Positions 6,213 through 56,498 of a stretch of 64,000 nucleotides of DNA are shown piece by piece. Made by a program: the position numbers and the translations under genes. The notes below the pieces were generated by a model. That model was not told the origin of the DNA and searched no databases. It was given only the letters and a program-made list of their open reading frames with translations. The DNA is taken from assembly GCA_001790815.1 (NCBI GenBank), contig MGDU01000018.1, positions 788 through 64,787 of the forward strand, written 5' to 3'. Positions within the stretch are counted from its first letter, which is position 1. Each line of letters opens with the position of its first letter. The stretch is from Candidatus Uhrbacteria bacterium RIFCSPHIGHO2_02_FULL_46_47. Its GTDB lineage: Bacteria > Patescibacteriota > Patescibacteriia > GWA2-47-26.

Positions 6213-7523
6213 TTATTTTAACTCCTCCAACACCACTTTTATTTCTTTTTCCTTTCCTTGGCTTAACACTTTGAGCACCAGCGTATCTCCAACTTTATGC
6301 TTTTGAATCTGTGATGCAAGCGATGTTTCCTCGGTAATCTTGACCTTGTCAATCTCTAAAATAATATCATTTTCACGCAGACTGGCTTTGTCCGCAGGAG
6401 AGCCGGGTACAACTGCAAGATCCGTTCGGCGATCTCCGCGCACAATAAGCGCGCCGTAGTCCACTGGCAATTTATTTTCCTGCGCAAGCTCTGGGTTGAT
6501 AATAATATAGCGCACGCCAAGCCATGGTCGTACAATCCTTCCTACGCTTCTTATACTCTCAATAGCCAGTTTGGCTGGATTTATAGGAATCGCAAAGCCA
6601 ACGTTCTGTCCTGCTGAAGATACGGCGGTATTAATGCCAACTACTTCCCCGCGCAAATTCACCAACGGCCCCCCAGAATTTCCCGGATTAATTGCCGCGT
6701 CGGTCTGTATCGCCTCCTCTATAACTTCAGAGCCAATGCCCGGACCACCGGCAGTAACTCTGCGCTTAATGCCAGAAACAACACCTTTGGTAATAGTGTT
6801 GGAAAATTCTGAAAGAGCGTTTCCGATTGCAATGACTGTTTCGCCGATTTGCAGCTTATCTGAATTGCCAAGCTTTGCTGTTGGAAGATTCTTTGCCTCA
6901 ATCTTAAGAAATCCTAAATCAATGAAGGGATCGCGAGCAAGAACCTTTGCCTCGTAGCGTTTGCCATCTGCGGTCACCACAGTATAGCTTGCCTGATCAT
7001 CAAATATAACGTGCTTGTTCGTAGCAATAAGACCGTCGGAGGCAATAATAAATCCTGTGCCTCCACCAACCTGCCTCCTTTGCGGCGGGCTTTGCGGTTG
7101 CTGCTGCTCCGGCATTTCAATTTCAAATCCAAACTCCCGAAAAAGATCCTCGGGGAAAATAGGGCCGGTTGAGCGCGCAGAGATTTCTTTGGAGATGACA
7201 ATGGAAACCACCGCGGGAGATACTCGCCGCACTACTTCTTCAGTGCTAAGCTCAACTATCGCATTTTTACCCTCACCCTCCCCTCTCCCTAAGGGAGAGG
7301 AATCTACTTTTACTCCCTCTCCCCGTGTGGGAGAGGGTTGGGGTAAGGGGAAGTTACGCGGCACGATCCATTGTAACGACGACGGCAATGACGTACGCAA
7401 ACTCTGTCCCAAATTCCCCGCGGCAATCTGGGTCACCACAATACCGCCGGCAAGTCCTGAAGCGCCACCTACCACAAGACTAATGGCAACTGAAATAATA
7501 ATGGTTTTTCTGAATTCGGACAT
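6213..7523 (-). CDS. HtrA/DegP-family serine protease (trypsin-like domain plus PDZ), membrane anchored, with an in-frame GEGEG-element insertion
   Basis: GNSGGPLVNLRGEVVGINTA; PDZ-like segment; N-terminal TM. Confidence 0.9.
   Translation of the reverse strand: MSEFRKTIIISVAISLVVGGASGLAGGIVVTQIAAGNLGQSLRTSLPSSLQWIVPRNFPLPQPSPTRGEGVKVDSSPLGRGEGEGKNAIVELSTEEVVRRVSPAVVSIVISKEISARSTGPIFPEDLFREFGFEIEMPEQQQPQSPPQRRQVGGGTGFIIASDGLIATNKHVIFDDQASYTVVTADGKRYEAKVLARDPFIDLGFLKIEAKNLPTAKLGNSDKLQIGETVIAIGNALSEFSNTITKGVVSGIKRRVTAGGPGIGSEVIEEAIQTDAAINPGNSGGPLVNLRGEVVGINTAVSSAGQNVGFAIPINPAKLAIESIRSVGRIVRPWLGVRYIIINPELAQENKLPVDYGALIVRGDRRTDLAVVPGSPADKASLRENDIILEIDKVKITEETSLASQIQKHKVGDTLVLKVLSQGKEKEIKVVLEELK
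7279..7362. repeat. GEGEG palindromic element copy (ccctcaccctcccctctccctaagggagagg … ccctctccccgtgtgggagagggttggggtaagggg) inside htrA
   Basis: Read directly; encodes …SPLGRGEGEGK…. Confidence 0.8.
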
Positions 7524-7711
7524 GGGGTAGGGATTAGGTTTTAGGTTTTAGGGGTTAGTAAATTATTTTACCACGCGATGGCAAGGGATTTCAATGGGGT
7601 GTGGATCGCATACGAGAAATGGCTCGTACCATTGTGCGTCAGGCGGAGGAAATGCCTACACCAGAACTTCCAACGCTGTATGTCCACCTCGGACCTACGG
7701 CACTTTTTTAA

Positions 7712-7747
7712 TCACAAAAGCCCCATAAAGGGGCTTCCATGCGGGAT
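7712..7747 (-). terminator. rho-independent terminator candidate (gcccctttatggggc followed by a U-run) downstream of tRNA-Asp
   Basis: Hairpin plus T-run on the minus strand. Confidence 0.45.
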
Positions 7748-7839
7748 CCTAGTCCCGATGACTTAGAAATCGTTGTCAGCATTTTAAATATAACATATTC
7801 TCAAGATATTGTCAAGTGTTCTTATCCACACCTAACCGG

Positions 7840-7912
7840 TGGTGGACCGTAGGGGAATTGAACCCCTCTGGAATCGCTGACAACGATTCCTGGTCACCAG
7901 ACACAACGGCCC
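7840..7912 (-). tRNA. tRNA-Asp (anticodon GTC) with encoded CCA. The D-arm is atypical and short
   Basis: Reverse complement GGGCCGT…GGAATCG-TTGTCAG-CGATTCC…AGGGGTTCAATTCCCCTACGGTCCACCA. Acceptor, anticodon and T arms are canonical; the D-arm is uncertain. Confidence 0.55.
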
Positions 7913-7952
7913 GACCCACCGGGTCTGATATTTTATCACATTATTTACTACT

Positions 7953-8588
7953 CTAAAAGTCAATCCCTTTTTGCGCCTTTATCCCTTTATCATACGGGTG
8001 TTTTACTTTTTGCATTTTTGTTACAAGGTCAGCCAGTTCGGCAAGCTCCGGGTATTCTTTATGTCCGGTCATGATTAAATATACCTCGGGCGGTTTAGCA
8101 CGGATCAACGCTTTGATATCTTCCACACTCAAAAGCGCGCTATCTACCGCTGATAAAATTTCATCTAAAATCACTACATCAAATTCCCATTGCGAAGCAC
8201 TGGGCGACCCAGTGCTTCGCAATATTTTCATCACAAATTCCAATCCTTCGCGCGCGGCTTCTTCATGCTCTTCAATTGGCTTTTTGTCTCCCATGATACG
8301 CACCCATCCTTTTCCAACGATGTGAAATTCCAATTTCCCCTCACCCTCCCCTCTCCCTAAGGGAGAGGGTGGCCGTAGGCCGGGTGAGGGCAACTGCTCC
8401 AACCACTTAAACATCTTTCCCTCCCCGGTTTCCCATCCCGCGTCTTTCCCGCCTTTCATAAATTGCATAAACAGCACGCGCTTGCCTTGCCCCAAGGCGC
8501 GCACCGCCAGTCCCACCGCGGCGGTGCTTTTCCCCTTCCCATATCCCCAATAAATCATCACCAAACCTTTTTGTATATTGATATTCAT
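7953..8588 (-). CDS. cobO: cob(I)yrinic acid a,c-diamide / ATP:corrinoid adenosyltransferase (BtuR/CobO family) with an in-frame GEGEG insertion
   Basis: YWGYGKGKSTAAVGLAVRALGQGKRV..QFMKG … GIKAQKGIDF matches BtuR end to end. Confidence 0.85.
   Translation of the reverse strand: MNINIQKGLVMIYWGYGKGKSTAAVGLAVRALGQGKRVLFMQFMKGGKDAGWETGEGKMFKWLEQLPSPGLRPPSPLGRGEGEGKLEFHIVGKGWVRIMGDKKPIEEHEEAAREGLEFVMKILRSTGSPSASQWEFDVVILDEILSAVDSALLSVEDIKALIRAKPPEVYLIMTGHKEYPELAELADLVTKMQKVKHPYDKGIKAQKGIDF
8337..8390. repeat. GEGEG palindromic element copy inside cobO
   Basis: cccctcaccctcccctctccctaagggagagggtggccgtaggccgggtgaggg. Confidence 0.8.
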
Positions 8589-9385
8589 AATTCCATACCG
8601 GCAGCTTTCCATGCTAATTCAAAAATACTCCGATGCGTATCCGCAATTACCGCGCTTTCAATAATAACACCAACCAATTCTTCTTCTTTTAAGGACATAA
8701 TGGCCACCTTATTACCGTATATATTGATCTCCGTTTTAAAAATGAATTCATCCGGGGGTAAAAATCGCGTTTGCGGAATGGCCACTGGGTTAGCTCCGGT
8801 ATAATATCGCGCGTTAAATTTACGAGCAAGCGGCGTATCAGCAGTGATACCGCGCAGTGGAATCCCCAGTTCTGCCCGGCGTTTAGTATAGCTTTTCATA
8901 TAATCTCCAAACACATTTACTAAATCATCAAGAGAAGTAAAATCTAAAATTTCTTTAGGACGACTTGTCAGTGTGTCTTCAAAAATTGTTTTGATCCCTT
9001 CCACTCCTTCATAAAAACGAACGCGGGGCTTGGCCGGTGTTGCACTATATAATAAATTCAATTCCGGAAGCAATAATTCCAGCGCGGTTTTCTTGCTTTC
9101 CAGTTGAGACATTATCGTAGAGGGATTTTCCGCAATAAAAATTTGCTTTTTACCTTCAATAGCGCGACTCACCAGTCCGTCCGCTTCCAGGCCTTGTAGC
9201 ACACTGTACACCGTAGTGCGCTTGATCCTTGCCGCTTTGGCAACCATCTGCACCGGCGCTTTTCCCATTTGCAAAAGTGCGACATATACCGCCGCGCGCT
9301 TTTTATCAAAGCCAAACTGAAGCAAATCCCGCTCTAGTCCTAATTTTGTGGAGTGCTTAAGCATAGTGAGTGTCCAAGTTTCCAA
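8585..9385 (-). CDS. TrmB-family transcriptional regulator
   Basis: N-terminal wHTH (…AAVYVALLQMGKAPVQMVAKAARIKRTTVYSVLQGLEADGLV…). Confidence 0.7.
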   Translation of the reverse strand: METWTLTMLKHSTKLGLERDLLQFGFDKKRAAVYVALLQMGKAPVQMVAKAARIKRTTVYSVLQGLEADGLVSRAIEGKKQIFIAENPSTIMSQLESKKTALELLLPELNLLYSATPAKPRVRFYEGVEGIKTIFEDTLTSRPKEILDFTSLDDLVNVFGDYMKSYTKRRAELGIPLRGITADTPLARKFNARYYTGANPVAIPQTRFLPPDEFIFKTEINIYGNKVAIMSLKEEELVGVIIESAVIADTHRSIFELAWKAAGMEL

Positions 9386-9738: not shown

Positions 9739-9781
9739 GTTCCCGCCGCAAACAACCTACTCCACACCAAAGGAGGACTCC

Positions 9782-10278: not shown

Positions 10279-10390
10279 ACTCCCTCACCCTACCCTCTCC
10301 CGCGGGGAGAGGAAAAATCAGGAAAATCCATTTATATACCCTCTACCTCTGGGAGAGGGTGCTCCGACCGCGGTCGGAGCGGGTGAGGGT
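10279..10390. repeat. composite GEGEG palindromic element (two modules, including 'gtgctccgaccgcggtcggagcgggtgaggg') flanking the DUF559 gene
   Basis: Read directly. Confidence 0.8.
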
Positions 10391-10392: not shown

Positions 10393-10737
10393 CTATTTAC
10401 GAAGTTCCGTAAGTATAGTCTCGAGCACAACTTCCGTTTCTCGTACCGCAGTATCTGCACCAAATCGGATGACTCTATACCCATGATTTTCTAAATATCG
10501 CGTTCGTGTAGCATCTTTTTTAACCCTGGCTCCATGTTGACTCCCATCGATCTCAACAATCATACACATTTCTTCACAACAAAAATCCGTAGTATATGGT
10601 CCTACTGGATGCTGGCGCCTAAACTTATAACCGCCTAGTTGTCTATTGCGAATAAAATACCATAACTTATTTTCAGCATCCGTCGCATTATGGCGAAGCG
10701 TGCGAGCGCGTTTGATGGTTTCCATATACCCCCTCAC
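10393..10737 (-). CDS. DUF559 endonuclease-domain protein (Vsr-like fold)
   Basis: …ENKLWYFIRNRQLGGYKFRRQHPVGPYTTDFCCEEMCMIVEIDGSQH… typical of DUF559. Confidence 0.8.
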   Translation of the reverse strand: MRGYMETIKRARTLRHNATDAENKLWYFIRNRQLGGYKFRRQHPVGPYTTDFCCEEMCMIVEIDGSQHGARVKKDATRTRYLENHGYRVIRFGADTAVRETEVVLETILTELRK

Positions 10738-10778
10738 CTATCCTTCGGCCATCCTCTCCCGCGGGGAGAGGAACTAAA
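10733..10778. repeat. GEGEG element copy (intergenic, other flank of the DUF559 gene)
   Basis: ccccctcacctatccttcggccatcctctcccgcggggagagg. Confidence 0.75.
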
Positions 10779-10998: not shown

Positions 10999-11032
10999 AC
11001 CCTCACCCTACCCTCTCCCATGGGGAGAGGAA
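10999..11032. repeat. GEGEG element copy between the zinc-ribbon gene and the end of nrdJ
   Basis: ccctcaccctaccctctcccatggggagagg. Confidence 0.75.
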
Positions 11033-16487: not shown

Positions 16488-16577
16488 CCATGATACGAAT
16501 CTACAAATATTTGCGAATCTACGAATATACTAATTCGCATATTTGTTGATTCGTCATTGATTCGCTGATTCGTATCA
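16488..16577. repeat. long imperfect hairpin 'atgatacgaatc…gattcgtatcat' built from tandem 'attcg' units. Same family as the copy at 49670..49783
   Basis: Ends are exact reverse complements. Confidence 0.7.
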
Positions 16578-16931
16578 TAAAAAATACGGCACGAAGATAA
16601 GCAATCCCACAATCAGCGCACCAAGCGATGCGATGAGCACCGCGCCGGCCATCAAGTCTTTAATCTCCTGCACCATAGGATGAATACGCGGTTTAAATAC
16701 ATCCACAAACCGCTCTAAAATGCTATTTATCAACTCCAAAGTAAGCACTAAAATTATCAGCAGTAAAAGGGCAATCGCTTGCCACAAAGGAAGTTGAAAC
16801 CAAAATATCAACGCGACAATTACAAGCGCCGCCGCAACTTGAATGCGAAAACTTTGCTCGTATTTCCAGGCAATGACAATACCACGGGCGGCATAACGGA
16901 AACTTTGAAATAGACGACGTAGACTTAACAT
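16575..16931 (-). CDS. dgkA: diacylglycerol kinase / undecaprenol kinase (DgkA family)
   Basis: 118-aa three-TM protein with the DgkA pattern. Confidence 0.8.
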   Translation of the reverse strand: MLSLRRLFQSFRYAARGIVIAWKYEQSFRIQVAAALVIVALIFWFQLPLWQAIALLLLIILVLTLELINSILERFVDVFKPRIHPMVQEIKDLMAGAVLIASLGALIVGLLIFVPYFL

Positions 16932-17438
16932 AAATTCACCTAATTCATCTAATTCCTAATTCACCTAATAAAAATTAAAAGGAAAAATTCATAAATTATT
17001 GTTGAATACCCTTCCTGTTTTCCGTTTCTTTCGCTCGTTTAATGATAGTCATAAATATAAGATTAAGCTCGTGTGCTTCTTTCCAGAGTCTTCTCGCTTC
17101 AGAGGTGAATTCCGGACATGCTTTGGATACCATGCGCAGAAAATGCTTTGATTCTTTTGCTTCTTTATTGGCAATAGCCATTTTGTGGATGAAATCTTTA
17201 TTGCTTTCTGCACAATCCGCCTCACAGTAGTTTGCACCTATTGCCGTCGTACATCCTATCAACTGGGGGATAATACGTTTTGTAATCTCATCTTTGGGCA
17301 ATTGCCTGCAAAATACAATCGCATCTTCACCGAATTTAGCCGTTCTTTCTTCTAAATCATAGTGCTTTTTACTTTCCTCCTTTGGCATTTGGTATTTTAT
17401 TAGGTGAATTAGGTGAATTGTAATTTAGGTGAATTTTC
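16926..17438. mobile_element. hairpin-flanked cassette carrying a four-helix-bundle (23S rRNA IVS-type) protein gene. Inverted repeats aattcacctaattcatctaattcctaattcacctaat / ttaggtgaattaggtgaattgtaatttaggtgaatt
   Basis: IRs read directly; inserted between ybeY and dgkA. Confidence 0.6.
16996..17388 (-). CDS. four-helix-bundle protein (TIGR02436, 23S rRNA intervening-sequence protein family)
   Basis: …ERTAKFGEDAIVFCRQLPK…IGANYCEADCAESNKDFIHKMAIANKEAKESKHFL…. Confidence 0.85.
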   Translation of the reverse strand: MPKEESKKHYDLEERTAKFGEDAIVFCRQLPKDEITKRIIPQLIGCTTAIGANYCEADCAESNKDFIHKMAIANKEAKESKHFLRMVSKACPEFTSEARRLWKEAHELNLIFMTIIKRAKETENRKGIQQ

Positions 17439-17871
17439 TAAGCACTTTCTCTTCTACCTTTTCCATCTGCTTCGCTTCCTTCTCCTCCTCATGATCATAT
17501 CCTAGCAGATGCAAAAATCCGTGCAAGACAAGACGCGCGATTTCGTAGCGCATAATCCAGCCGTATTTTTTTGCCTCGCGTCTGGCCTCGGGGAAAGAAA
17601 TAAATATATCACCCAGATCCCCCCTCACCCTGCCCTCTCCCCCAGGGAGAGGGGTTGGGGTGAGGGTAGAAAACGACAACACATTCGTCGTCTTGTCTTT
17701 TCCTCTATACTTTTTATTTATTGCGCGCATTTTTTTATCGCCAATAAAACTAATGGATATGGCTACATTGCGCGGACATTGTATTATTTTTACGGCTTGA
17801 TTGACAATCTGTTTCACCGCGCTTTCATATCGCCTTGCCGCTGATACTTCATATCTAACAATGATTTTCAT
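17425..17871 (-). CDS. ybeY: rRNA maturation RNase YbeY with an in-frame GEGEG insertion
   Basis: HGFLHLLGYDHEEE metal motif. Confidence 0.9.
   Translation of the reverse strand: MKIIVRYEVSAARRYESAVKQIVNQAVKIIQCPRNVAISISFIGDKKMRAINKKYRGKDKTTNVLSFSTLTPTPLPGGEGRVRGDLGDIFISFPEARREAKKYGWIMRYEIARLVLHGFLHLLGYDHEEEKEAKQMEKVEEKVLRKFT
17619..17668. repeat. GEGEG element copy inside ybeY (encodes …PTPLPGGEGRVRG…)
   Basis: cccccctcaccctgccctctcccccagggagaggggttggggtgaggg. Confidence 0.8.
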
Positions 17872-18890: not shown

Positions 18891-19529
18891 TTACTGTCCC
18901 GCAGGGACAGTAAAGAGCTTCCCTTCTCCTTTCGGATTATATCCATTTCTTACTTCTTGCCCGTCAAGAAAATTATCTCCATCAGTATCTGCGTCTAAAG
19001 GATCCGTCTGATAGGTATTTACCTCTTCCCCATCCAAAAGACCATCATTGTCTGAATCCGGATTTTGCGGGTCAGTTCCGCGTGAAGTTTCATCTTCATC
19101 TGAAAGCCCGTCATTATCCGAATCTGCCGGCGGAGCAGGCGGTACTTCTTCCACAATAGTTTCTTCAGTTGGCGCAGTAGTAGCTTCGGGCAAAGTAGGA
19201 ATTTCCGGAGGAACTGGCTGTGATACTTCTGCTTGAGGCGGCGCTGGCGGCGCAGCACTGCGGCGCGCAAAACGAAGCACTGCCACTGCTATTCCGGCAA
19301 CAACAAGTATGCCAAGCACAATACCGCCAATTAAAATTGTTTTGCGCGAAGCAATAAGCGGCTGTTTTACTTCTGCCGGTGTTCCCTCACCCTCCCCGCG
19401 CCCTTTGGGAGAGGGTGCTCCGCCCGCAGGAGGAGCGGGTGAGGGAGCTGGCTCCACTTTTTCAAAAATATCTTCTGGCGCAGGGCCTGTGGGTAAATTA
19501 GGAGGCGTTTGTTCTTCAAACATTGGCAT
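18891..19529 (-). CDS. membrane-anchored protein with TSP3-like repeats and an in-frame GEGEG insertion
   Basis: DSDNDGLSDEDE…DSDNDGLLDGEE…DTDGDNFLDGQE. Confidence 0.65.
   Translation of the reverse strand: MPMFEEQTPPNLPTGPAPEDIFEKVEPAPSPAPPAGGAPSPKGRGEGEGTPAEVKQPLIASRKTILIGGIVLGILVVAGIAVAVLRFARRSAAPPAPPQAEVSQPVPPEIPTLPEATTAPTEETIVEEVPPAPPADSDNDGLSDEDETSRGTDPQNPDSDNDGLLDGEEVNTYQTDPLDADTDGDNFLDGQEVRNGYNPKGEGKLFTVPAGQ
19403..19465. repeat. GEGEG element copy inside the TSP3-repeat gene
   Basis: ccctcaccctccccgcgccctttgggagagggtgctccgcccgcaggaggagcgggtgaggg. Confidence 0.8.
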
Positions 19530-19697
19530 AAAGGTTATGAGTTATGAGTTATTGGTTATTAGCCATGTGTATAACAAAGTATACCATATTTATTGATATT
19601 GACACAATGTAAAATCGGCGCTATGGTGTAAAAGTGGTTCGGAAACCAAATCCCCCACCAGCCTAATGGCTTTCCTCTCCCTTAGGGAGGGGGTAGG

Positions 19698-21071
19698 GTG
19701 AGGGTCAACAAGGAGGAAGAGATGAAGACGTTCCTTTTCACGCTAGTGCTGGCATTCACGCTTGGCCTGACCATGTTCTCCTGCGGAAGCGGGGGCGGCA
19801 ACGGTAACGAAGGCGAGTCCGAAGCAGAAGCCGAAGCGGAAGGCGAAGAGGCCGAGGCTGAGTCTGAGTCCGAATCCGAGTGCGAACCTGAATCCTGCGA
19901 CGACGGCGTGGACTGCACAGATGATACCCTTGACGAAAAGGTGTGTGCCTGCGCATTCCAACCTCTCCACGGCCGTTGCGATCTCGGCATGATCTGCGAT
20001 CCTGCGGAAGGCGGCTGTGTCAGCCCGCCTCCCTGCGCCGTGGCGAGCGACTGTCCGGATCGCGATGGCGCTTGTTTGCAGGAATCCTGCAACACAGCCA
20101 CGGCGACCTGCGCATACTTGCCGCTGGACAGTGACGAGGACGGCCATTCGCCCCAAATCTGCACCTCGGTTGGCGGCGACGACTGCTACGATGATGCCAG
20201 CGAGATCTACCCCGGCGCTCCGGAGTTCTGCGACGGGCTGGACAACGACTGCGATGGAGAGGTGGACAGCTTCAGCCGTTCCTGCGGCTCCGACACCGGC
20301 GAGTGCGTTGCCGGGGAGCAGACCTGCGCAGACGGCGAGTGGTCGCAGTGCGATGATGTCGGCCCGGCCACCGAAGTCTGTGATGGGTTGGACAACGACT
20401 GCGATGGAGAAGTGGATGAGTTTCTCATCAACGATTGCAACGAATGCGGGCCGCTTCCGGAAGAAGTCTGCGACGGGGAGGACAATGATTGCGATGGAAC
20501 AACTGATGAAGGCCTGTTGAACGCGTGTGGGCAGTGCGGGCCTCTTCCGGAAGAAGTCTGCGACGGGGAGGACAATGACTGTGATGGAGAAGTAGACAAT
20601 GGTCTTCCAGAAATTGCTTGCGATGGGGAAGACGGCGATGAGTGTGAGGAAGGGTTTTGGCAGTGCGAAGATGGTGTGAGTTTCTGTGATGACCAAACCG
20701 GAAATACAATCGAATGGTGCAACAATAGTGTAGACAACGATTGTGATGGAGAAGTAGACGAGGGATGCGGTGATGCGTGTATCATGCCGCCATCCGCGTG
20801 TCCTTATGGCGGTTGGTGCGTCCCGGAGCCCGGGTGCCCCTACTGCGTCTGGACCTGCGCTACAGTTTCTGACTGTCCCGGAGGCGCCGCCTGCTATACT
20901 TGCGATTACTTTGGTGACGGGCTTTACCTCTGCAATCCCAAGTGGGACCCGGAGGCGAGTTGTCCCGCCGGTGAGATCGGGTACCCGCTTGGCGCGAGTT
21001 CGGAGTGCGATGGCGGCTTTGATCTATCCTTTTCAAGTGCACCTCTATGCACCATTGAGTGCACTCCGTAA
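19698..21071 (+). CDS. secreted/lipoprotein-like Cys-rich protein with MopE-type 'putative metal-binding motif' repeats (CDGxDNDCDGxxDE); GC-rich with a strong SD
   Basis: Signal peptide; at least 6 CDG.DNDCDG repeats; SD aaggagga. Confidence 0.75.
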   Translation: MRVNKEEEMKTFLFTLVLAFTLGLTMFSCGSGGGNGNEGESEAEAEAEGEEAEAESESESECEPESCDDGVDCTDDTLDEKVCACAFQPLHGRCDLGMICDPAEGGCVSPPPCAVASDCPDRDGACLQESCNTATATCAYLPLDSDEDGHSPQICTSVGGDDCYDDASEIYPGAPEFCDGLDNDCDGEVDSFSRSCGSDTGECVAGEQTCADGEWSQCDDVGPATEVCDGLDNDCDGEVDEFLINDCNECGPLPEEVCDGEDNDCDGTTDEGLLNACGQCGPLPEEVCDGEDNDCDGEVDNGLPEIACDGEDGDECEEGFWQCEDGVSFCDDQTGNTIEWCNNSVDNDCDGEVDEGCGDACIMPPSACPYGGWCVPEPGCPYCVWTCATVSDCPGGAACYTCDYFGDGLYLCNPKWDPEASCPAGEIGYPLGASSECDGGFDLSFSSAPLCTIECTP

Positions 21072-21245: not shown

Positions 21246-21312
21246 TTGATTCCTCGTTTTGTGCTATAATATCTATGCGGTCAAAAGTATACGATCGTAT
21301 ACTTTTGACCGC
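21246..21312 (+). promoter_or_regulatory. extended -10 promoter (TGcTATAAT) immediately followed by a perfect 36-bp palindrome GCGGTCAAAAGTATACGATCGTATACTTTTGACCGC (21277..21312)
   Basis: Read directly; no downstream plus-strand CDS. Confidence 0.4.
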
Positions 21313-21440
21313 AGTTGATTAATAACGCAGCTAAAGTGATTTTTTCCTAGTTACTGAAGCGGCGCAAATTTATAGAAACAAATTACAAAACTCACTACCC
21401 GCCTAGATGCGGGAATTACCGCATACCGCGCAAACAATAC

Positions 21441-21478
21441 TACGGTCAAAAACCTACGATCGTATAGAATTGACCGCA
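21441..21478. repeat. degenerate second copy of the 36-bp palindrome (ctacggtcaaaaacctacgatcgtatagaattgaccgc)
   Basis: Read directly. Confidence 0.5.
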
Positions 21479-41348: not shown

Positions 41349-42797
41349 ATGGATCAACTCTCATCCAATTTTTTAAAAGAATCCTCACCAGAACCGAAAG
41401 AAAATCGGCGTGTAATTTTTCTTCTCCTTGGAGCACTGATTTTTCTTATCGTCAGTGCCTCAATTGGAGGAATGCTTTTTGCGTCCTCAGCGGGTTTTAC
41501 TCCTGCAAAGATTTTTGCGAAATTGCGTTCACTTACTCTTTCAAAAGAGAAAATGCTCAAAGGTGAAAAAGACGATCGGGTAAATATCCTCCTTCTGGGC
41601 ATGGGAGGAGTTGGTCATGATGGAGCACTCCTGACTGATACAATGATCTTTACAAGCCTGCGGCCATCTGATGGCACCGTCGCCATGCTTTCTATTCCAC
41701 GGGATCTGCAGGTTGAAATTCCCAGTTATGGATATCGCAGGATAAACAGCGTTAACTCCTATGCGGAACTTGAAAATAGTGGAAGCGGCGGGATGGCAAC
41801 GGCAAATCTTGTATCTAATATCTTAACTCAACCAATTCATTATTATTTGCGCGTTGATTTTGAAGCATTCAAAGAAATTGTTGATACCATTGATGGAATC
41901 GAGGTGAATGTAGGGCGCGCGTTCTATGATCCATTCTATCCTGACGAAAACTTCGGTTATGAACCCGTCTCCTTTGAAGCCGGGCCTCAAACTATGAACG
42001 GTAAACGCGCGCTCCAATTTGTACGCAGCCGCCATGGCACAAACGGAGAGGGCAACGATTTTGCACGCGCGCGACGTCAACAGCAAGTCCTTTTTGCGCT
42101 AAAAGAACGACTGCTCTCTTTTGACGTATTGCTTCGTCCAAAACGAATTCAGAGCATTCTTGAGTCTTTGCAAGATCATATCCAAACCGATATCGCGTTT
42201 TGGGAAGGAATGCGGCTTGCAAAACTTCTGCGCCATATTGATGGAAGCAAAATTGTAAGCCGCGTTCTTGACGCATCTGATGAAGGAGTACTTCAAGAGC
42301 GAAACTACAACGGCGCGTTTGTATTGGAGCCAAAAGGCGGAAATTGGGATGAAATTCGCGCGATTGCCGCGAATGTATTTTCACCCGCAACCCCCTCACC
42401 CCAACCCTCTCCCCAAGGGGGCGAGGGGGTGACGCTAAAATCCCCTCTCCCTAAGGGAGAGGGTGCTCCGACCGCGGTCGGAGCAGGTGAGGGAACACAA
42501 AAAGCATCCGCGCCTATTGTGGAAATCCAAAACGGCACTTTTACGCTTGGGCTTGCCTCAAAAATCGCGACTATTCTTGAGGCGCAAGGATTTAATCCGG
42601 CTAGCATCGGCAATGCGACACTGCGCGATGTGGATGAGACCATTGTCTATGACCTAACTGGCGGACAAAAGAAAGAAGAATTTGCAAAACTGCGGGAAAT
42701 TCTCAAAGCGCGCGATGGCGAAGGCGAGCCACTTCATCTTTTAAGTCAGGGTAAACTGGATTTCCTCGTCATCTTAGGGGCAAATTCAGTTAAGTGA
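41349..42797 (+). CDS. LytR-CpsA-Psr (LCP) family cell-wall glycopolymer transferase with an in-frame GEGEG insertion
   Basis: …NILLLGMGG.GHDGALLTDTMIFTSL…MLSIPRDL…. Confidence 0.85.
   Translation: MDQLSSNFLKESSPEPKENRRVIFLLLGALIFLIVSASIGGMLFASSAGFTPAKIFAKLRSLTLSKEKMLKGEKDDRVNILLLGMGGVGHDGALLTDTMIFTSLRPSDGTVAMLSIPRDLQVEIPSYGYRRINSVNSYAELENSGSGGMATANLVSNILTQPIHYYLRVDFEAFKEIVDTIDGIEVNVGRAFYDPFYPDENFGYEPVSFEAGPQTMNGKRALQFVRSRHGTNGEGNDFARARRQQQVLFALKERLLSFDVLLRPKRIQSILESLQDHIQTDIAFWEGMRLAKLLRHIDGSKIVSRVLDASDEGVLQERNYNGAFVLEPKGGNWDEIRAIAANVFSPATPSPQPSPQGGEGVTLKSPLPKGEGAPTAVGAGEGTQKASAPIVEIQNGTFTLGLASKIATILEAQGFNPASIGNATLRDVDETIVYDLTGGQKKEEFAKLREILKARDGEGEPLHLLSQGKLDFLVILGANSVK
42390..42492. repeat. 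composite GEGEG element inside the LCP gene (encodes …PSPQPSPQGGEGVTLKSPLPKGEGAPTAVGAGEG…)
   Basis: Read directly. Confidence 0.8.
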
Positions 42798-44375: not shown

Positions 44376-44490
44376 CGCCGGTCTTTAGCCGGCGTCTCCC
44401 TCTCTTAAGTCCGACGCTTCAGTCGGACTCCGACCCCACAGGGCGTCGGAGATAAGAGAGGGTGGGGTGAGTTATGACAAACTCGTAGCG
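44376..44490. repeat. cluster of nested palindromes downstream of der. It contains hairpin cgccggtctttagccggcg and a 'ccctctcttaag…gataagagagggtggggtgagttatga' element with another palindrome nested inside it
   Basis: Read directly; the same element without the nested insert sits at 47606..47650. Confidence 0.65.
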
Positions 44491-45473: not shown

Positions 45474-45727
45474 GATCTTCCTCCTCCCATGCGGGCAGTG
45501 GCGGTACCACGGCGGCTTGAAACTATGCCGCCCCAATACCGGTAAACCCGCACACGAGTTTTCAATGTGCCGCGCAGATGATGGCGGATTGCCTTCACCC
45601 GAGCACATCTTTACCCTACTGCCTGTTTTACACAATGTCAATGGTACGCCAGTCGGTCTTTAGCCGGAGATTATTTTATGATACAATCCTTTACCCGGAG
45701 GGTCGGGTCGTTGTGTCCGGTGACCAA

Positions 45728-45850
45728 GGATAGCTATCACCTATCCTAGAGGGGTCCGACTCCCCTACGATCCACCTCCGGTTATGTGGATAAACCAATC
45801 TTGACAATTCTTATTTAATTTGTTACCTTATAATCAGGTGATAGCTATCC
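45728..45850. promoter_or_regulatory. 14-bp inverted repeats GGATAGCTATCACC (45728..45741) / GGTGATAGCTATCC (45837..45850) bracketing a TTGACA…TATAAT promoter-like region
   Basis: Read directly; the -35/-10 spacer is 22 nt, which is suboptimal. Confidence 0.35.
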
Positions 45851-47025: not shown

Positions 47026-47616
47026 ATGAAACTCATCATCGGCCTGGGCAACCCGGGAAAAGAATATGAAAAAACCCGACATAATGTTGGGTTTCTTGCG
47101 GTTGAAAAAATCGCGCAGGATTTACAATTTTCTAAATGGAAAATGGAGAAAAAATTGGAAGCCGAGGTGTGCCGCGGTTTTATTGCATCTTGCTGTGAAG
47201 ATGTAATCCTTGCCAAACCCCAAACCTTCATGAACCTCTCCGGCCGCGCAGTCCAACTACTTACTACGTACTACAAACTACATACGAATGACGTGCTCAT
47301 CGTCCACGACGATTTGGATTTAGAGCTTGGCACGCTTAAACTATCCTACGGTTCAGGTAGCGCAGGACATAACGGTGTGCAATCAATTATTGATACGCTA
47401 GGCACTAAAGATTTCTGGCGCCTGCGCATGGGCATTGGCCGCCCACCACAAGTTCGGGAGGGTTATGATGACGCGGCAAAATTTGTCCTGCACAATTTCT
47501 CCCGCACCGAAAACCCCAAACTCAAAAAATCCCTTGACCTTGCCGCGCAAGCCGTTCAAAAAATGTTTACCCTCGGCCCGGCCAAAGCCCAGACGGAAAT
47601 TAATTCCCTCTCTTAA
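47026..47616 (+). CDS. pth: peptidyl-tRNA hydrolase
   Basis: MKLIIGLGNPGKEYEKTRHNVGF…. Confidence 0.95.
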   Translation: MKLIIGLGNPGKEYEKTRHNVGFLAVEKIAQDLQFSKWKMEKKLEAEVCRGFIASCCEDVILAKPQTFMNLSGRAVQLLTTYYKLHTNDVLIVHDDLDLELGTLKLSYGSGSAGHNGVQSIIDTLGTKDFWRLRMGIGRPPQVREGYDDAAKFVLHNFSRTENPKLKKSLDLAAQAVQKMFTLGPAKAQTEINSLS

Positions 47617-48434: not shown

Positions 48435-49667
48435 ATGGAAAACGAAAAAATTTACTACCAAGCGCTGGCGAGGTTTGATAAAATCGGGCCGTTGCGGTTG
48501 CGGACGCTTTTGAAAAGTTTCACATCCGTGGAGCAGATTTGGCACGCCTCGGCCCAAGACCTTACCCGCTCTGGATTGGATGAAAATGTTGCGACGGAAT
48601 TTGTGTCCTGGCGCAAAGACCAGGATATTGAAAAGCAGTGGGAAGAGTTGCAGAAAGAAGGGATACAGGTGGTGACGTGGGGGGATGCTCCCCCTCACCT
48701 GGCCTCCGGCCATCCTCTCCCTCAGGGAGAGGGACGGGGTGAGGGAAAATATCCATCACTCCTTGCTGAGATTCATGATCCGCCGCATACATTGTTTGTG
48801 AGAACAGCACACCCCCTCCTAACCTCCCCCATCAAGAGGGAGGGACAAATTGGTAGTTCCCCTCCCCTGGTGGGAGGGGTTAGGGGAGGGGAAATTTTTG
48901 ACAACACCTTCACCCTTGCGGTGGTGGGGACGCGCATGGCTACTACTTATGGCCGACAAATTGTAGAGCAGATTGTTGGGCCGCTGGCGCGCTCAGGACT
49001 AACTATTGTTTCCGGACTGGCCCTGGGAGTTGACGCGCTGGCACATGATGTAACTGTACGCGAAGGTGGAACTACCATTGCCGTGCTTGGCGGCGGGTGC
49101 GATCGCGCTTCAATTTATCCTACGAGCAACCGCGCCTTAGCCGAGAGGATCATTGAAAAAGGTGGCGCAGTAATTTCTGAATATCCGCCAGGTACTTTAG
49201 CCATGCCATTTCATTTCCCGCATCGCAATCGCATTATCTCCGGCATGAGCCGCGGTACTTTTGTTATTGAGGCCACTGAAGATTCTGGTTCGCTCATTAC
49301 CGCAAAGCACGCGCTTGAGCAAAACCGCGAAGTGTTTACAGTGCCCGGCGATATTACCCGCGATACATCGCGCGGGCCAAACAATCTTTTGAAAATGGGC
49401 GCGCACCCGGTACTTTGCGCTGATGATATTTTGGACGCGCTGAATTTGCAAGATTTAAAAGCCACAATTGAAGCGCGAAAAATCATGCCGGATGATCCAA
49501 CTGAAGAGAAGATTTTGGCGCACTTGGGAGATGAGCCAGTGCACATTGACGAGCTTGTGGAAAAGACACAAATGCAAGCTGGCGAAACTGCTTCATGCTT
49601 GACACTTATGGAAATGAAAGGTAAAGTCCGGCATATTGGAGGAATGAACTATGTGCTCGCGCACTGA
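48435..49667 (+). CDS. dprA: DNA processing protein DprA (Rossmann-like plus C-terminal wHTH) with two in-frame GEGEG-family insertions
   Basis: …LTIVSGLALGVDALAHD…GGGTIAVLGGG…. Confidence 0.9.
   Translation: MENEKIYYQALARFDKIGPLRLRTLLKSFTSVEQIWHASAQDLTRSGLDENVATEFVSWRKDQDIEKQWEELQKEGIQVVTWGDAPPHLASGHPLPQGEGRGEGKYPSLLAEIHDPPHTLFVRTAHPLLTSPIKREGQIGSSPPLVGGVRGGEIFDNTFTLAVVGTRMATTYGRQIVEQIVGPLARSGLTIVSGLALGVDALAHDVTVREGGTTIAVLGGGCDRASIYPTSNRALAERIIEKGGAVISEYPPGTLAMPFHFPHRNRIISGMSRGTFVIEATEDSGSLITAKHALEQNREVFTVPGDITRDTSRGPNNLLKMGAHPVLCADDILDALNLQDLKATIEARKIMPDDPTEEKILAHLGDEPVHIDELVEKTQMQAGETASCLTLMEMKGKVRHIGGMNYVLAH
48691..48894. repeat. two GEGEG-family element copies inside dprA (48691..48747 and the variant 48812..48894)
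   Basis: cctccggccatcctctccctcagggagagggacggggtgaggg; cccctcctaacctccccc…gggaggggttaggggagggg. Confidence 0.8.
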
Positions 49668-49669
49668 TA

Positions 49670-49783
49670 TGATACGAATCAGCGAATATCTGACGAATCT
49701 ACCAATATACGAATTGAGTAAGGATTTCGTAGATTCGCATATTCGTTGATTCGCTATAAGATTTGTAGATTCGTATCATAATA
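49670..49783. repeat. long hairpin 'atgatacgaatc…gattcgtatcat' abutting the topA start codon
   Basis: Same family as 16488..16577. Confidence 0.7.
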
Positions 49784-54015: not shown

Positions 54016-54086
54016 CGCTACTTCCGAGAGGTGGCGCTCTTTTTTATCTTGACGCACGCGATGTAAAACGCTATACTGCACAATAT

Positions 54087-55580
54087 ATGGATGAACTTCT
54101 GCAGTCACTTCTTTCCGCAGTTACAGGAACTTTTTCTTCCGCGGATATTCAACTTGTAGAGCGTGCGTATAATTTTGCATTTAAAGCACACACAAACCAA
54201 ACGCGATTAAATGGCATGCCTTTTATTACGCATTCCGTCGGCACGGCAGAATTGCTTGCACAATGGAAATTACCTCCTCTTCTTGTAGTTGCCGGACTTT
54301 TGCATGATGTACCGGAGGATACTCCTCTTACTATCAGTGATATTGAAAAAGAATTCGGCAAAGAAATTGCGAACATTGTTGAAGGAGAGACGAAGCTCGA
54401 TCATCTTAAATATCAGGGAGTTGAACGTTACGCCGAAAATCTTCGCAAAATGTTCCTTGCAATAGCAAGCGATATACGGGTTATTTTTGTAAAATTCGCG
54501 GATAGAATTCATAATCTACAAACGCTTGAAGGCATTCCGGAATATAAACAACAACGCATTGCGCTTGAAAGCCTTGAAATCTACGCGCCGATTGCCAATC
54601 GTTTGGGAATGGGCGCGATTCGCGGTGAACTAGAAGATCTTTCTTTCAAATATGTGCATCCTGCAGAATATGCATGGGTCACCTCGCTTGTTCAAGATCG
54701 TCTTAAATATAAAGAAGGGTACCTTGAAACAATCAAAACAATTATTGAGAAAGATCTTAAACAAGGCGGGATTATTCCGATTTCCATTCACGGCCGCACA
54801 AAACACCTTTACAGTTTGTACAAAAAACTTCTTGAAAAAGATCGCGATATTTCTAAAGTATACGATATTGTGGCCGAGCGTATTATTGTGCCAACTGTTC
54901 AAGATTGTTATGCGACGCTTGGCATTCTACACCAACGTTGGAAGCCATTAAAAGGACGCATTAAAGATTACATTGCTCAGCCAAAACCCAATGGCTATCA
55001 ATCTATACACACGACTATTTTTTGCGACGATGGCGAGATTGTAGAGTTCCAAATCCGCACCCCGCAGATGCATGAGGAGGCAGAGTACGGTATCGCGGCA
55101 CATTGGTTTTATGTGGACAAAGGCAAAAAAATCGTGGTAATGGATCACCACTTAAGCTGGCTTAAAGATCTGGTCAAGATTCAAAAAAATATCAATGACC
55201 GCACGAAATTTCTTGAAGCTCTTGAATCTCTCAAAATTGATTTTTTCAATAATCGTATTTTTGTCTTTACTCCCAATGGCGATGTTATTGATCTTCCGGA
55301 AGGAGCCACGCCGGTTGATTTTGCTTATGCCATTCATACTGAAATTGGCAATCATTGCACCTCCGCGCGCGTCAATGATAAAATGACCCAACTGAATGTA
55401 CCTCTACAATCTGGCGATGTAGTTAAAATTACTACTGATAAAAATCGCAAAGGTCCCTCGCCGGATTGGCTCGATTCTGTAAAAACAAATCATGCCCGCG
55501 CAAAGATTAAAGAAGCCGTAAAAAAAACAAAATTCTCGGGCTGGCTCCGAGAGCTCGTGCACCATCGGAAATCAAACTGA
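54087..55580 (+). CDS. rel: RelA/SpoT-family (p)ppGpp synthetase/hydrolase (HD plus synthetase plus TGS, no ACT)
   Basis: HD motif LLHDVPEDT; synthetase EFQIRTPQMHEEAEYGIAAHW; TGS FVFTPNGDVIDLPEGATPVDFAYAIHTEIG. Confidence 0.92.
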   Translation: MDELLQSLLSAVTGTFSSADIQLVERAYNFAFKAHTNQTRLNGMPFITHSVGTAELLAQWKLPPLLVVAGLLHDVPEDTPLTISDIEKEFGKEIANIVEGETKLDHLKYQGVERYAENLRKMFLAIASDIRVIFVKFADRIHNLQTLEGIPEYKQQRIALESLEIYAPIANRLGMGAIRGELEDLSFKYVHPAEYAWVTSLVQDRLKYKEGYLETIKTIIEKDLKQGGIIPISIHGRTKHLYSLYKKLLEKDRDISKVYDIVAERIIVPTVQDCYATLGILHQRWKPLKGRIKDYIAQPKPNGYQSIHTTIFCDDGEIVEFQIRTPQMHEEAEYGIAAHWFYVDKGKKIVVMDHHLSWLKDLVKIQKNINDRTKFLEALESLKIDFFNNRIFVFTPNGDVIDLPEGATPVDFAYAIHTEIGNHCTSARVNDKMTQLNVPLQSGDVVKITTDKNRKGPSPDWLDSVKTNHARAKIKEAVKKTKFSGWLRELVHHRKSN

Positions 55581-56498
55581 CTATTCTGCTGAACCAGAGA
55601 TTTTACCGATAATTTCACTATAATCCTGATCTGAATAAAACTGGATCACAATCTTGCCGCGCTCGCCACTTTTTTCTATTTGTACTTTTGTATTAAGCGT
55701 CTCGCGCAACCGCATCTCATCCGCAAGAAGTGCTGGATCTTTGGTACTGGTACGTTTTCTTCGAATTTTAGGCGCGGCAAGATCCTGCGCCTCGCGCACT
55801 GTTAGACCTTCCCCGACCATGCGGTCAAACACTTCCTTGCGCGCGCGCGGATTATCAATGGATAGAAGGATACGCGCGTGTGCCGGACTGATTTTGCCTG
55901 AAGCAACTGATGTCTGCATCTCAGTTGGAAGCTCTAAAAGCCGCAAGGCGTTAGAAATTGATTCTCGGCTTTTACCAGCTTTCTTTGCGGCTTCTTCCTG
56001 CGTCAAACCAAATGTCTCAACTAGTTCGCGATATGCTTCTGCTTCCTCTATAGGATTGAGATCTTGCCGCTGTATATTTTCAATAAGCGATAGTTCCAAT
56101 TTTTCAAGATCGTCCGCATGGCGCACTACCACTGGCACAGTTTTCAATTTCAGCATTTTGACTGCCCGCAAACGCCGCTCGCCAGCAATAAGCTCAAAAC
56201 GCCCATCGTTTTTTTCAGTAACAATGAGCGGTTCCAAAATCCCGTACTCTTTAATTGAAGCTTTCAGCTCCTGGAGTTTTTCCTCATTAAAAATCGTGCG
56301 CGGCTGGCGCGGATTAGGATCAATGCGATCAGGCGCAACCTGAAGCACGCTCATCACCTCCCCCTCATCAGGATCGTGGGGCGGAAGCACCCTCACCCTA
56401 TCCTCTCCCTGGGGGAGAGGGTGGCCGGAGGTCGGGTGAGGGGTGGGGGCAATGACTCCCGGAATAAGCGAACTTAAACCCTTGCCAAAAGTATCCAT
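55581..56498 (-). CDS. parB: chromosome partitioning protein ParB with an in-frame GEGEG insertion near the N-terminus
   Basis: …KGLSSLIPG…; HTH …GLTQEEAAKKAGKSRESISNALRLL…. Confidence 0.92.
   Translation of the reverse strand: MDTFGKGLSSLIPGVIAPTPHPTSGHPLPQGEDRVRVLPPHDPDEGEVMSVLQVAPDRIDPNPRQPRTIFNEEKLQELKASIKEYGILEPLIVTEKNDGRFELIAGERRLRAVKMLKLKTVPVVVRHADDLEKLELSLIENIQRQDLNPIEEAEAYRELVETFGLTQEEAAKKAGKSRESISNALRLLELPTEMQTSVASGKISPAHARILLSIDNPRARKEVFDRMVGEGLTVREAQDLAAPKIRRKRTSTKDPALLADEMRLRETLNTKVQIEKSGERGKIVIQFYSDQDYSEIIGKISGSAE
56388..56452. repeat. GEGEG element copy inside parB
   Basis: ccctcaccctatcctctccctgggggagagggtggccggaggtcgggtgaggggtggggg. Confidence 0.8.

Follow-up and report, generated by a model that had tools for sequence, protein, structure and literature searches.

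Palindromic GEGEG elements residing in frame in conserved genes of a Candidatus Uhrbacteria genome belong by sequence to the BoxC/PIT/TM repeat family and probably represent the ends of a small DUF559 nuclease unit

How does a palindromic repeat come to reside, again and again, in frame within conserved genes? This question is raised by a 64-kb stretch of DNA (the window) from a metagenome-derived genome of Candidatus Uhrbacteria, a lineage of the Patescibacteria (Candidate Phyla Radiation; CPR). It carries a family of dispersed palindromes, here called GEGEG elements, for which an earlier note made from the nucleotide sequence had counted at least 12 copies and had proposed a likeness to the Rickettsia palindromic elements (RPEs). 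As set out below, the GEGEG elements are probably copies of a pan-bacterial selfish repeat known from Escherichia coli as BoxC, PIT or TM, whose inverted modules, designated P and M, form the ends of a unit that carries a gene for a DUF559 nuclease.

Copies were called by core 9-mer clustering, a scan for C-rich/G-rich hairpins and direct reading of the sequence. Fourteen of them (E1 to E14; Table 1), spanning positions 7270 to 56442, were found where chance would provide none, a count that bears out the dispersed modular repeat of the earlier note. The arm combination CCCTCTCCC-N2-8-GGGAGAGGG occurs four times in the window (0.00 expected from shuffles), and GGGTGAGGG is present 15 times (0.24 expected from shuffles). 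The copies are 31-108 nt long, G/C-rich, share identical stretches of 30-31 nt with each other, and fold strongly as single-stranded DNA (-18 to -36 kcal/mol, with z-scores of -2.8 to -7.3 for most copies). At the gathering threshold, Rfam reported only a tmRNA and tRNAs in the window and no family for the elements; a consistent target-site duplication around the window copies was not seen either. Many independent contigs, and three assemblies, contain these same proteins; hence, an assembly artefact is excluded.

The basic module P comprises about 32-36 nt and consists of a C-arm (CCCTCTCCC), a loop of 3-5 nt, a G-arm (GGGAGAGGG), 2-4 nt, and a second G-arm (GGGTGAGGG); its reverse complement is referred to as M. 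Nested palindromes, in which M and P are superimposed on one common hairpin (CCCTCACCC..CCCTCTCCC-loop-GGGAGAGGG..GGGTGAGGG), are represented by E2, E6, E7, E12, and E14, while E1, E3, E9, and E13 possess a two-hairpin M-spacer-P form. E11 is the single P-M pair of the window, and E4, E5, E8, and E10 are solo modules. The short inter-arm spacer can be replaced by a small GC hairpin (GCTCCGACC-GCG-GGTCGGAGC or GGCC-N3-GGCC). Accessory hairpins are of two types, GCTCCGACCGCGGTCGGAGC (10361-10380 and 42465-42484, with a variant at 19415-19436) and GGCCNNNGGCC, and hairpins of like kind are also found in other phyla. The description of the copies as one type of element needs a qualification, since the second dprA copy (E13, with GGGGAGGGG arms) is a sequence variant, as are those at 44.4 kb and 47.6 kb (E10 and E11, with a TTATGA-tailed form). 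At one and the same site, related proteins can have either the short nested form or the one with two hairpins (ParB P0122 and P0126 vs. the window; DprA P0247), which suggests that the two forms may interconvert by deletion or duplication between the repeated arms.

Judged by their sequence, the GEGEG elements are members of a repeat family that has been known since the 1990s and was named E. coli BoxC, then PIT element, and then TM(ECO) (PMC4666352, where the earlier BoxC work by Bergler, Bachellier, and Maher is cited). The published TM(ECO) pattern, CCCTCNCCC-N3-6-GGGNGAGGG-N3-GGGNGAGGG with one stem mismatch permitted (Holder 2015, PMC4666352), is matched exactly by four window copies when the second loop is relaxed to 2-4 nt (0 expected), and other copies fit it with one arm mismatch or with a hairpin that replaces the second loop. 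The view that the elements are specific to this lineage and have no described equivalent therefore had to be abandoned: their core is that of BoxC/PIT/TM(ECO), and the exact sequence is present in many unrelated phyla. In the published survey, 3610 copies were counted in 262 proteobacterial genomes, with 23 copies in strain K-12 that are all intergenic; the E. coli sequence forms an intrastrand purine-motif triplex in vitro that was not detectable in vivo, the motif is without promoter or terminator activity, it is tied to local sequence instability, and neither a partner gene nor a mobility mechanism is known for it (PMC4666352). The Enterobacter sp. 638 genome paper lists 100 copies of the hairpin.

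We scanned one genome per species with the pattern CCCTCACCCTNCCCTCTCCC-N3-5-GGGAGAGG and recovered the same specified bases (at least 27) in at least 120 loci from many phyla. Among the matches listed are representatives of the Planctomycetota, Nitrospirota, Omnitrophota, Rokubacteria, Chloroflexota, four proteobacterial classes, Vampirovibrionales, Elusimicrobiota, and Patescibacteria, including isolates of Bosea, Xanthobacter, Rhizobium, and Variovorax. Where the G+C content of these loci is below 60%, 24-31% of the copies lie in a frame that runs without a stop for 80 codons or more to either side, compared with 42-49% of random positions. In six proteins from five other phyla, the element is in frame with Pfam domains that flank or span it; these are PrmC (Vampirovibrionales), a transketolase-like protein (Nitrospirae), a metallophosphoesterase (Omnitrophota), cytidylate kinase (cmk; Deltaproteobacteria), an Eco57I-type methylase, and a Zn-dependent alcohol dehydrogenase. 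At six Planctomycetota loci (L005, L008, L033, L037, L055, and L082), the module lies within a larger palindrome (AAAATAACTTCGGC...GCGGAAGTTATTTTT), which suggests either nesting in another repeat or an additional outer stem in that phylum.

Eight of the 14 window copies are located inside coding sequences (CDSs), those of htrA, cobO, ybeY, the TSP3-repeat gene, the LCP gene, dprA (two copies), and parB. All of them are in frame, and the open reading frames (ORFs) are full length. Pfam recognized each host gene that had been named in the earlier note (HtrA, CobO, YbeY, TSP3 repeat, LytR_cpsA_psr plus LytR_C, DprA, and ParB) with complete domain coverage, the quoted peptides were recovered, and there is no sign that the hosts are frameshifted pseudogenes. 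The C/G-rich arms translate to Pro/Ser/Leu on one half of the element and to Gly/Glu/Arg on the other.

Close orthologs lack these peptides, as expected for lineage-specific insertions. In an alignment of CobO with 29 relatives, three sequences (P0007, P0010, and P0012) that are 75-79% identical to the window protein run from helix to strand without the insert, and it is also missing from P0009. P0002 (82% identity) has the insert of the window, while the loop is occupied by a longer and different insert in P0003 and P0005 and by yet another version in P0025. The empty cobO site is present as DNA in L205, relative to which the window gains a net 16 codons. The ParB insert is limited to the window and its four closest relatives, and both ParB and DprA have relatives at about 65-72% identity without the respective inserts. 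In DprA, the first site is filled in three out of 21 sequences (E12 is missing from 15 of 20 relatives) and the second site in two out of 21, with one more sequence carrying an unrelated insert. Another Uhrbacteria genome (L206) is syntenic with the window over 20 kb and carries variant elements at the same HtrA and CobO sites, no element at the E7 site of its TSP3 ortholog, and an unrelated, longer sequence in place of E6 in the YbeY loop. According to these ortholog alignments, the peptides in CobO, ParB, DprA, HtrA, and the TSP3 protein are clade-specific insertions in loops or linkers.

One might still regard the Pro/Gly/Glu-rich stretches as ancestral low-complexity linkers, or the hosts as pseudogenes or assembly chimeras, and several inserts are indeed placed where linkers vary by nature, as in the N-terminal linker of ParB, the loop of YbeY, and the N-terminal region of HtrA. 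We consider this explanation practically untenable. At the DNA level, the stretches are a repeated palindrome with the 30-31-nt identities between copies described above, the absence of the peptides from close orthologs contradicts an ancestral origin, and the intact ORFs and Pfam domains, together with identical proteins on many contigs and in independent assemblies, speak against pseudogenes and chimeras.

The earlier note had predicted that the inserts occupy surface loops, and this was found for CobO and YbeY. In the AlphaFold model of CobO (mean predicted local distance difference test score, pLDDT, of 85), the insert (residues 74-92) is a coil with pLDDT values of 52-70 that sits between a helix (63-73) and a strand (93-99); the CobO insert thus maps, in the model, to a surface coil predicted with low confidence. 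The YbeY insert corresponds to a length-variable loop in alignments to solved structures (PDB), where the E6 peptide has VLSF on one side and LGD on the other. The other inserts were assigned to linkers from domain coordinates: E9 is located between the LytR_cpsA_psr and LytR_C domains, and E14 in the ParB linker that follows the N-terminal GKGLxxLIP peptide.

Further palindromic sequences in coding DNA were noticed in the window. A perfect 34-bp palindrome (GGAAGCTCAGCTTCCGT/ACGGAAGCTGAGCTTCC; 5437-5470), unrelated in sequence to the BoxC family, is in frame in the pyruvate kinase gene (4665-6110, minus strand) and coincides with a 10-residue insertion (KLSFRTEAEL) that is missing in the L206 ortholog. 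Inside cobO, a perfect hairpin with 16-nt arms (ATTGCGAAGCACTGGG-N3-CCCAGTGCTTCGCAAT; 8189-8223) coincides with a second, 8-residue insertion (LRSTGSPSASQ region) that is common only to P0007 in alignment A1. In-frame palindromic insertions in this stretch of DNA therefore exceed one family. The pyruvate kinase gene also contains an inverted repeat of GAGTTAT/ATAACTC heptamers (5781-5878), which encodes ELGVRSYELRV...ITHNSITHN and is partly common to L206; a AATAACTCATAACTCATAACC run at about position 19560, upstream of the TSP3 gene, resembles this heptamer repeat.

Are the elements built to be read through? The earlier note had taken the constant absence of stop codons to be a property of the element, as in RPEs. 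When all frames of the 14 copies are considered, 40 of 84 are free of stops, a value like that of random windows from the same genome (37-61%). Since about half of the element frames hold stops, we rejected intrinsic stop avoidance. Furthermore, copies are depleted from coding DNA: the window is about 87-89% coding, so that about 12 copies would be expected in CDSs under random insertion, compared with the eight observed (P about 0.006). The in-frame state is therefore a residue of selection, and read-through reflects survivorship. Insertions hit genes because the genome offers little else (about 89% coding); selection would then remove those that shift the frame, add a stop codon, or disturb the fold, and the survivors would be insertions whose length is a multiple of three bases, whose reading frame contains no stop, and whose site is a surface loop or an interdomain linker. 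The proposed RPE likeness hence holds for the behavior of the elements (in-frame insertions in intact hosts) and fails for stop avoidance as an intrinsic trait.

The same data bear on the possibility that the modules are host-beneficial structural signals under selection (terminators, G-quadruplex/hairpin switches, or triplex sites) that are bound by DUF559, with the copies in CDSs acting as regulatory structures in RNA or DNA. Of the six copies outside coding sequences, four (E3, E5, E10, and E11) lie just past stop codons, termination was presumed by the authors of the Enterobacter sp. 638 genome paper, the motif gives a stable triplex in vitro (PMC4666352), and the predicted DNA folds are strong (z-scores from -3 to -7). 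We nevertheless regard such a role as very improbable, as published tests for promoter and terminator activity and for a triplex in vivo were negative (PMC4666352), the copies in CDSs vary in presence, length, and subtype among close relatives, near-identical sequences in unrelated phyla and unrelated genes speak for spread rather than local function, and coding DNA is depleted of copies.

What, then, might spread the modules? When ORFs within 400 bp of 125 listed cross-phylum elements were clustered, DUF559 was the one small family that came up repeatedly; a few further clusters, of larger proteins and with few members, appeared beside it. The DUF559 genes in question touch the element. For the reverse test, metagenomes were scanned with a DUF559 alignment (A2), and the best 80 loci, which originate from diverse habitats and are 43-57% identical, were inspected. 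Core 9-mers were present within 250 bp of the DUF559 gene in 66 of these 80 loci (at least two in 63), with a density of 8.95/kb near the gene vs. 0.18/kb further off. The dominant order in the metagenomic loci is P, about 50 nt, the DUF559 gene, about 15 nt, and M, an arrangement in which the two modules are the terminal inverted repeats of a unit. Complete units are 397-481 bp long (about 440 bp), and arm subtypes such as CCCTCCCCC/CCCCCACCC agree on both sides of a given DUF559 gene. The direct repeats that flank 26 complete units amount to 0-2 nt, which is the chance level, and there is thus no target duplication. Distant DUF559/Vsr-like genes on viral contigs (up to 43% identity), which served as a negative control, are almost never accompanied by the motif.

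The window itself contains such a unit (10393-10772), which reads P (10772-10730)-gene-M and is followed by an additional spacer and a further P; M-spacer-P together represent E3, whose gene-proximal half is the downstream end of the unit (M on the strand of the gene). The earlier note had seen a pair of elements bracketing a DUF559 endonuclease gene; the gene and its flanking copies are real, while three or four modules contact the gene, which would be the cargo of the element rather than an enclosed bystander. The true start of this gene is likely the ATG four codons inside the listed ORF. L206 has its DUF559 gene at a different locus from that of the window, again in the order P-gene-M. Among isolates, Sinorhizobium meliloti has long inverted M-spacer-P arms around a DUF559 gene, Deinococcus proteolyticus has the order M-gene-P, Neisseria gonorrhoeae has a degenerate P at its DUF559 gene, and a BoxC copy is found 167 bp downstream of E. 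coli ycjD (chance expectation about 1%).

Whole units are found in frame in two other host genes. In a Gastranaerophilales locus (L015, 1774-4407), M-DUF559-P resides in priA between the 3'-DNA-binding and helicase domains, and a Methylotenera locus (L083, 1-2877) has P-DUF559-M within the methyltransferase domain encoded by an MmeI-type restriction-modification gene. Neither of the two inserted units showed a stop codon or signs of an intron or intein. Among solved structures, the DUF559 profile matches N. gonorrhoeae NGO0050 (PDB entry 3HRL) with an E-value of 3e-36 and, with one of 7e-5, the catalytic domain of I-Bth0305I (3R3P), a homing endonuclease. The residues E62, D64, H68, and D75 are invariant in alignment A2, and the window gene keeps every one of them. 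We found no prior description of BoxC copies residing in frame, of their flanking of DUF559/YcjD/COG2852 genes, or of whole units in priA and an MmeI-type gene, in a literature search that was incomplete and is no proof of novelty.

Two other gene-repeat combinations came to our attention. On plasmid pAQ6 of Picosynechococcus sp. PCC 7002 (L208, 430-1110), a DUF559 gene is flanked, in direct orientation, by a different triplex-like repeat (C5-loop-G5-N3-G5) and by CCCCTAAATCCCCG...GGGGACTTTCTACTGGTG repeats, an arrangement that may be a cyanobacterial counterpart. Genes for 23S_rRNA_IVP (four-helix-bundle) proteins are present beside ybeY in the window (16996-17388) and twice in L206 (3589-3966 and 15864-16253); a link of this gene to the repeat received no support, as phmmer detected no such gene near 120 listed cross-phylum elements.

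In E. coli, four of the five paired BoxC copies of strain K-12 have the order P-(16-27 nt)-M (PMC4666352, Table 1); judged by their arrangement, these pairs look like the unit minus its gene. Among 5426 complete E. coli genomes, 3375 contain ycjD. The fabI-sapF interval (L124/L211) holds either ycjD plus BoxC or the eefRABCD efflux operon: ycjD has been kept in phylogroups A, B1, and C, and B2 and other phylogroups carry eefRABCD in its place. A clean empty site for ycjD plus BoxC was thus not available, and the boundaries of the E. coli unit cannot be read because eefRABCD occupies the site in strains without ycjD. We take CFT073, UTI89, and IHE3034 to be B2 strains, and the phylogroups of the other strains compared here are likewise assumed. 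The number of modules is 19-30 in K-12, BL21, HS, 55989, IAI1, E24377A, and W, and 1-2 in CFT073, UTI89, IHE3034, S88, and APEC O1 (Holder Table S7, PMC4666352). High module counts hence go along with the ycjD-bearing phylogroups.

Collectively, these observations are best accommodated by the following explanation, which we think is probably correct in its outline. The inverted P and M modules would be the terminal inverted repeats of a unit of about 400-480 bp in which a YcjD-like DUF559 gene, the cargo of the full-length element, is the only gene. The other copies in the window would be derivatives without the gene: solo ends, pairs of ends (P-spacer-M and M-spacer-P), and pairs collapsed onto one hairpin, with the nested short form arising from the two-hairpin form by deletion between repeated arms. 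The DUF559 nuclease would recognize and cut the module, and would thereby home into gene-less pairs or mobilize them. What the data show directly is the identity of the family, its spread across phyla, the nature of the peptides as insertions, the loop position in CobO, the P-DUF559-M architecture, the lack of target-site duplications, and the in-frame residence in other phyla; the roles given to the nuclease and to deletion between arms are inferences. For the part in which DUF559 recognizes the module, causes its gene to home into pairs that lack it, and perhaps also multiplies these pairs, we see about equal reason for acceptance and for doubt. Tentatively, and with slightly less than even confidence, we also suggest that BoxC/TM and YcjD-like DUF559 together represent an unrecognized pan-bacterial minimal selfish element of about 440 bp, in which a Vsr-fold nuclease gene lies between two inverted ends capable of hairpin and triplex formation and which makes no target duplication. 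Its gene-less derivatives would colonize genomes and, where a lineage is gene-dense, persist in frame in housekeeping proteins, and even the complete nuclease unit can reside in this way, as in priA.

A number of points weigh against this explanation. No copy in a CDS was found to be present in one strain and absent from another in a comparison with three relatives (L001-L003), which across ybeY and the TSP3 gene either match the window exactly or have gaps, so that this comparison defines neither insertion boundaries nor a target preference. That the inserts are translated is deduced from intact reading frames, and binding or cutting of the motif by DUF559 is putative. The 80 metagenomic loci are the best matches to an element-associated query, so that the association holds for the YcjD-like subfamily only, and 14 of them show no module. 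The architecture is not uniform either, with the order M-gene-P in L015 and Deinococcus and one module only at E. coli ycjD. Of the 125 listed elements, which come from diverse genomes, solo modules make up 76%, and among the pairs M-spacer-P is as common as P-spacer-M; one fixed order of gene-less pairs was therefore rejected. Nuclease similarity tracks the arm subtype weakly (55.6% vs. 52.3% identity), and a coevolution of nuclease and arm subtype was dropped because this signal is too weak to use. The relation between module counts and ycjD in E. coli is a correlation that stems from few independent events. Finally, a lone PD-(D/E)XK nuclease has no obvious strand-transfer activity and would not by itself account for the spread of gene-less copies to new sites.

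According to the main alternative, which we consider unlikely, the modules are dispersed by another route (host replication or repair, a switch of template at a stable hairpin, or some transposase yet to be identified), while DUF559 is a free-standing homing endonuclease parasite that cuts gene-less modules and gets copied into them by repair. DUF559 is related to a real homing endonuclease, its gene is found between modules in varying orders, the modules elsewhere are mostly solo, and the gene is much rarer than the modules (five DUF559 genes in about 120 loci); the latter two statements refer to the matches listed. The lack of target-site duplications and the attribution by Holder et al. of local changes at the motif to replication/repair problems (PMC4666352) fit this alternative as well. 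However, it accounts for the location of the gene and offers no source for the dispersal of the repeat, and so explains less; moreover, the arm subtypes agree on both sides of each DUF559 gene, and E. coli lineages without ycjD have very few modules, which fits a nuclease that maintains or multiplies them. We therefore retain the unit bounded by P and M as the preferred explanation.

Catalogues of BoxC/PIT/TM repeats, which cover E. coli and hundreds of genomes, give no origin, mobility mechanism, or partner gene for them, and the widespread domain DUF559/YcjD has a solved structure but no function assigned to it. The tight association of the two across phyla renders both questions testable in E. 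coli. If the proposed explanation is true, a 30-year-old orphan repeat of E. coli would be explained and the orphan domain DUF559 would be given a function. In-frame palindromic colonization of housekeeping genes, which has been held to be a peculiarity of Rickettsia, also occurs in the CPR and in at least five other phyla with the same repeat, and is of relevance to protein evolution because selfish DNA seeds loops. For annotation, it follows that 'GEGEG' and 'PSPLP' peptides and spurious small ORFs stem from BoxC elements, which bears on alignments and structure predictions for proteins of metagenome-assembled genomes.

Table 1. Positions of the GEGEG elements and of the DUF559 gene in the window
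Feature	Position	Form	Location	Peptide or remark
E1	7270-7349	Two-hairpin M-spacer-P	In htrA (6213-7523, minus)	PLPQPSPTRGEGVKVDSSPLGRGEGEGK
E2	8338-8390	Nested palindrome + GGCC mini-hairpin	In cobO (7953-8612, minus)	PSPGLRPPSPLGRGEGEG
E3	10282-10389	Composite M-spacer-P + GCTCCGACCGCGGTCGGAGC hairpin	3 nt downstream of DUF559 stop codon	DNA fold -35.7 kcal/mol, z -7.25
DUF559 nuclease gene	10393-10737	YcjD-like, Vsr-fold PD-(D/E)XK	Minus	Pfam PF04480, 5.7e-38
E4	10730-10772	Solo module, P reading 10772-10730	At DUF559 gene	
E5	11000-11031	Solo M	13 nt downstream of ribonucleotide reductase stop codon	
E6	17622-17666	Nested palindrome	In ybeY (17425-17871, minus)	TPTPLPGGEGRVRG
E7	19384-19445	Nested palindrome + accessory hairpin	In TSP3-repeat gene (18891-19529, minus)	PSPAPPAGGAPSPKGRGEGEG
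E8	19674-19704	Solo P	Directly upstream of Cys-rich MopE-motif gene	
E9	42393-42493	Composite M-spacer-P + GCTCCGACC hairpin	In LCP gene (41349-42797, plus)	
E10	44398-44476	Variant module CCCTCTCTTAAG...TAAGAGAGGG-TGG-GGTGAGTTATGA, GC hairpin nested in loop	Intergenic, 53 nt past der (engA) stop codon	
E11	47604-47688	Gene-less P-M pair, TTATGA-tailed variant	Overlaps final codons of pth (47026-47616)	Fold z -5.9
E12	48690-48745	Nested palindrome + GGCC hairpin	In dprA (48435-49667, plus)	PHLASGHPLPQGEGRGEG
E13	48811-48895	Two-hairpin, GGGGAGGGG subtype	In dprA	HPLLTSPIKREGQIGSSPPLVGGVRGGE
E14	56390-56442	Nested palindrome + GGCC-type hairpin	In parB (55581-56498, minus)	

E8 is intergenic if the ATG at about position 19719 is the real start of the MopE-motif gene. 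Apart from the GEGEG elements, the window holds a second palindromic family (TATGATACGAATC...GATTCGTATCATA, with internal ACGAATC repeats) in two intergenic copies (16488-16580 and 49667-49781). Two copies of a palindrome of 38-40 nt (TGCGGTCAAAAGTATACGATCGTATACTTTTGACCGCA; 21276-21315 and 21439-21478) are positioned 123 nt apart just downstream of a giant ORF of 4675 residues (21576-35603, minus strand). ARAGORN reported a tRNA-Asp (anticodon ATC) at 45705-45776, which is unsupported by Rfam and overlaps an inverted repeat (45717-45742/45836-45861).

How do the GEGEG elements compare with known systems? With BoxC/PIT/TM(ECO) they share near-identical arms and the same architecture (CCCTC[T/G]CCC-loop-GGGAGAGGG-N2-4-GGGTGAGGG), many dispersed copies that occur singly and as inverted pairs (E1, E3, E9, E11, and E13 in the window), and a presence that varies among relatives. 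Unlike the BoxC copies of E. coli K-12, 23 out of 23 of which are intergenic (PMC4666352), eight of the 14 window copies are in frame in CDSs; the intergenic location is, however, a description of the K-12 genome and not a definition of the family. The window copies also differ from those of E. coli in being mostly full palindromes (nested or two-hairpin) with added GC mini-hairpins. The link to DUF559/YcjD, the occurrence outside the proteobacteria (Patescibacteria, Planctomycetota, Nitrospirota, and others), and the in-frame residence go beyond what the publications consulted describe for BoxC.

In their behavior, the elements are RPE-like without being RPEs. RPEs are about 100-150 bp long and restricted to Rickettsia (Ogata et al., 2000, as summarized in PMC10969869, a review whose account of them names no associated gene). 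As far as this account allows a comparison, both are palindromic mini-elements of small genomes densely packed with genes, where they have entered unrelated housekeeping genes in frame and left these hosts intact, and in both the added peptides appear to be found at fold-compatible positions, here the coil of the CobO model and the variable loop of YbeY. By their description, RPEs are set apart from the modules of the window, which are 31-108 bp long and G/C-rich, occur in many phyla, and have a nuclease-carrying full-length form.

REPIN-RAYT systems consist of short hairpin repeats that occur singly and as inverted doublets, flank a low-copy gene, and cause no target-site duplication (Bertels and Rainey; Nunvar et al.). 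The organization found here is REPIN-RAYT-like, in that the repeats flank a low-copy gene in the window, in 66 of the 80 metagenomic loci, and in isolates, and yet the elements are not members of this group: their partner is a Vsr-fold PD-(D/E)XK nuclease (PF04480) and not an HUH/Y1 (IS200/IS605-like) transposase, the window elements are without a GTAG tag, and REPs are extragenic whereas the window elements are often in CDSs. With the classical miniature inverted-repeat transposable elements of DDE transposons, the unit shares terminal inverted repeats, as P and M bound it; it differs from them in the lack of a target-site duplication, both for the 26 complete units and for the window copies.

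The nuclease itself is most readily compared with EDxHD/Vsr-like homing endonucleases such as I-Bth0305I (PMC3239194), with which it shares a related catalytic core and conserved acidic and His residues; by analogy, both would be small selfish nuclease genes embedded in a presumed target. I-Bth0305I is encoded in a group I intron and possesses an additional N-terminal DNA-binding region (PMC3239194), whereas the DUF559 protein has about 110 amino acids and its gene lies between inverted repeats, and in L015 and L083 continues the reading frame of its host, neither an intron nor an intein being involved. Indirect hints of homing are the gene-less P-M pairs (E11 and the E. coli pairs) and a DUF559 locus that differs between related genomes.

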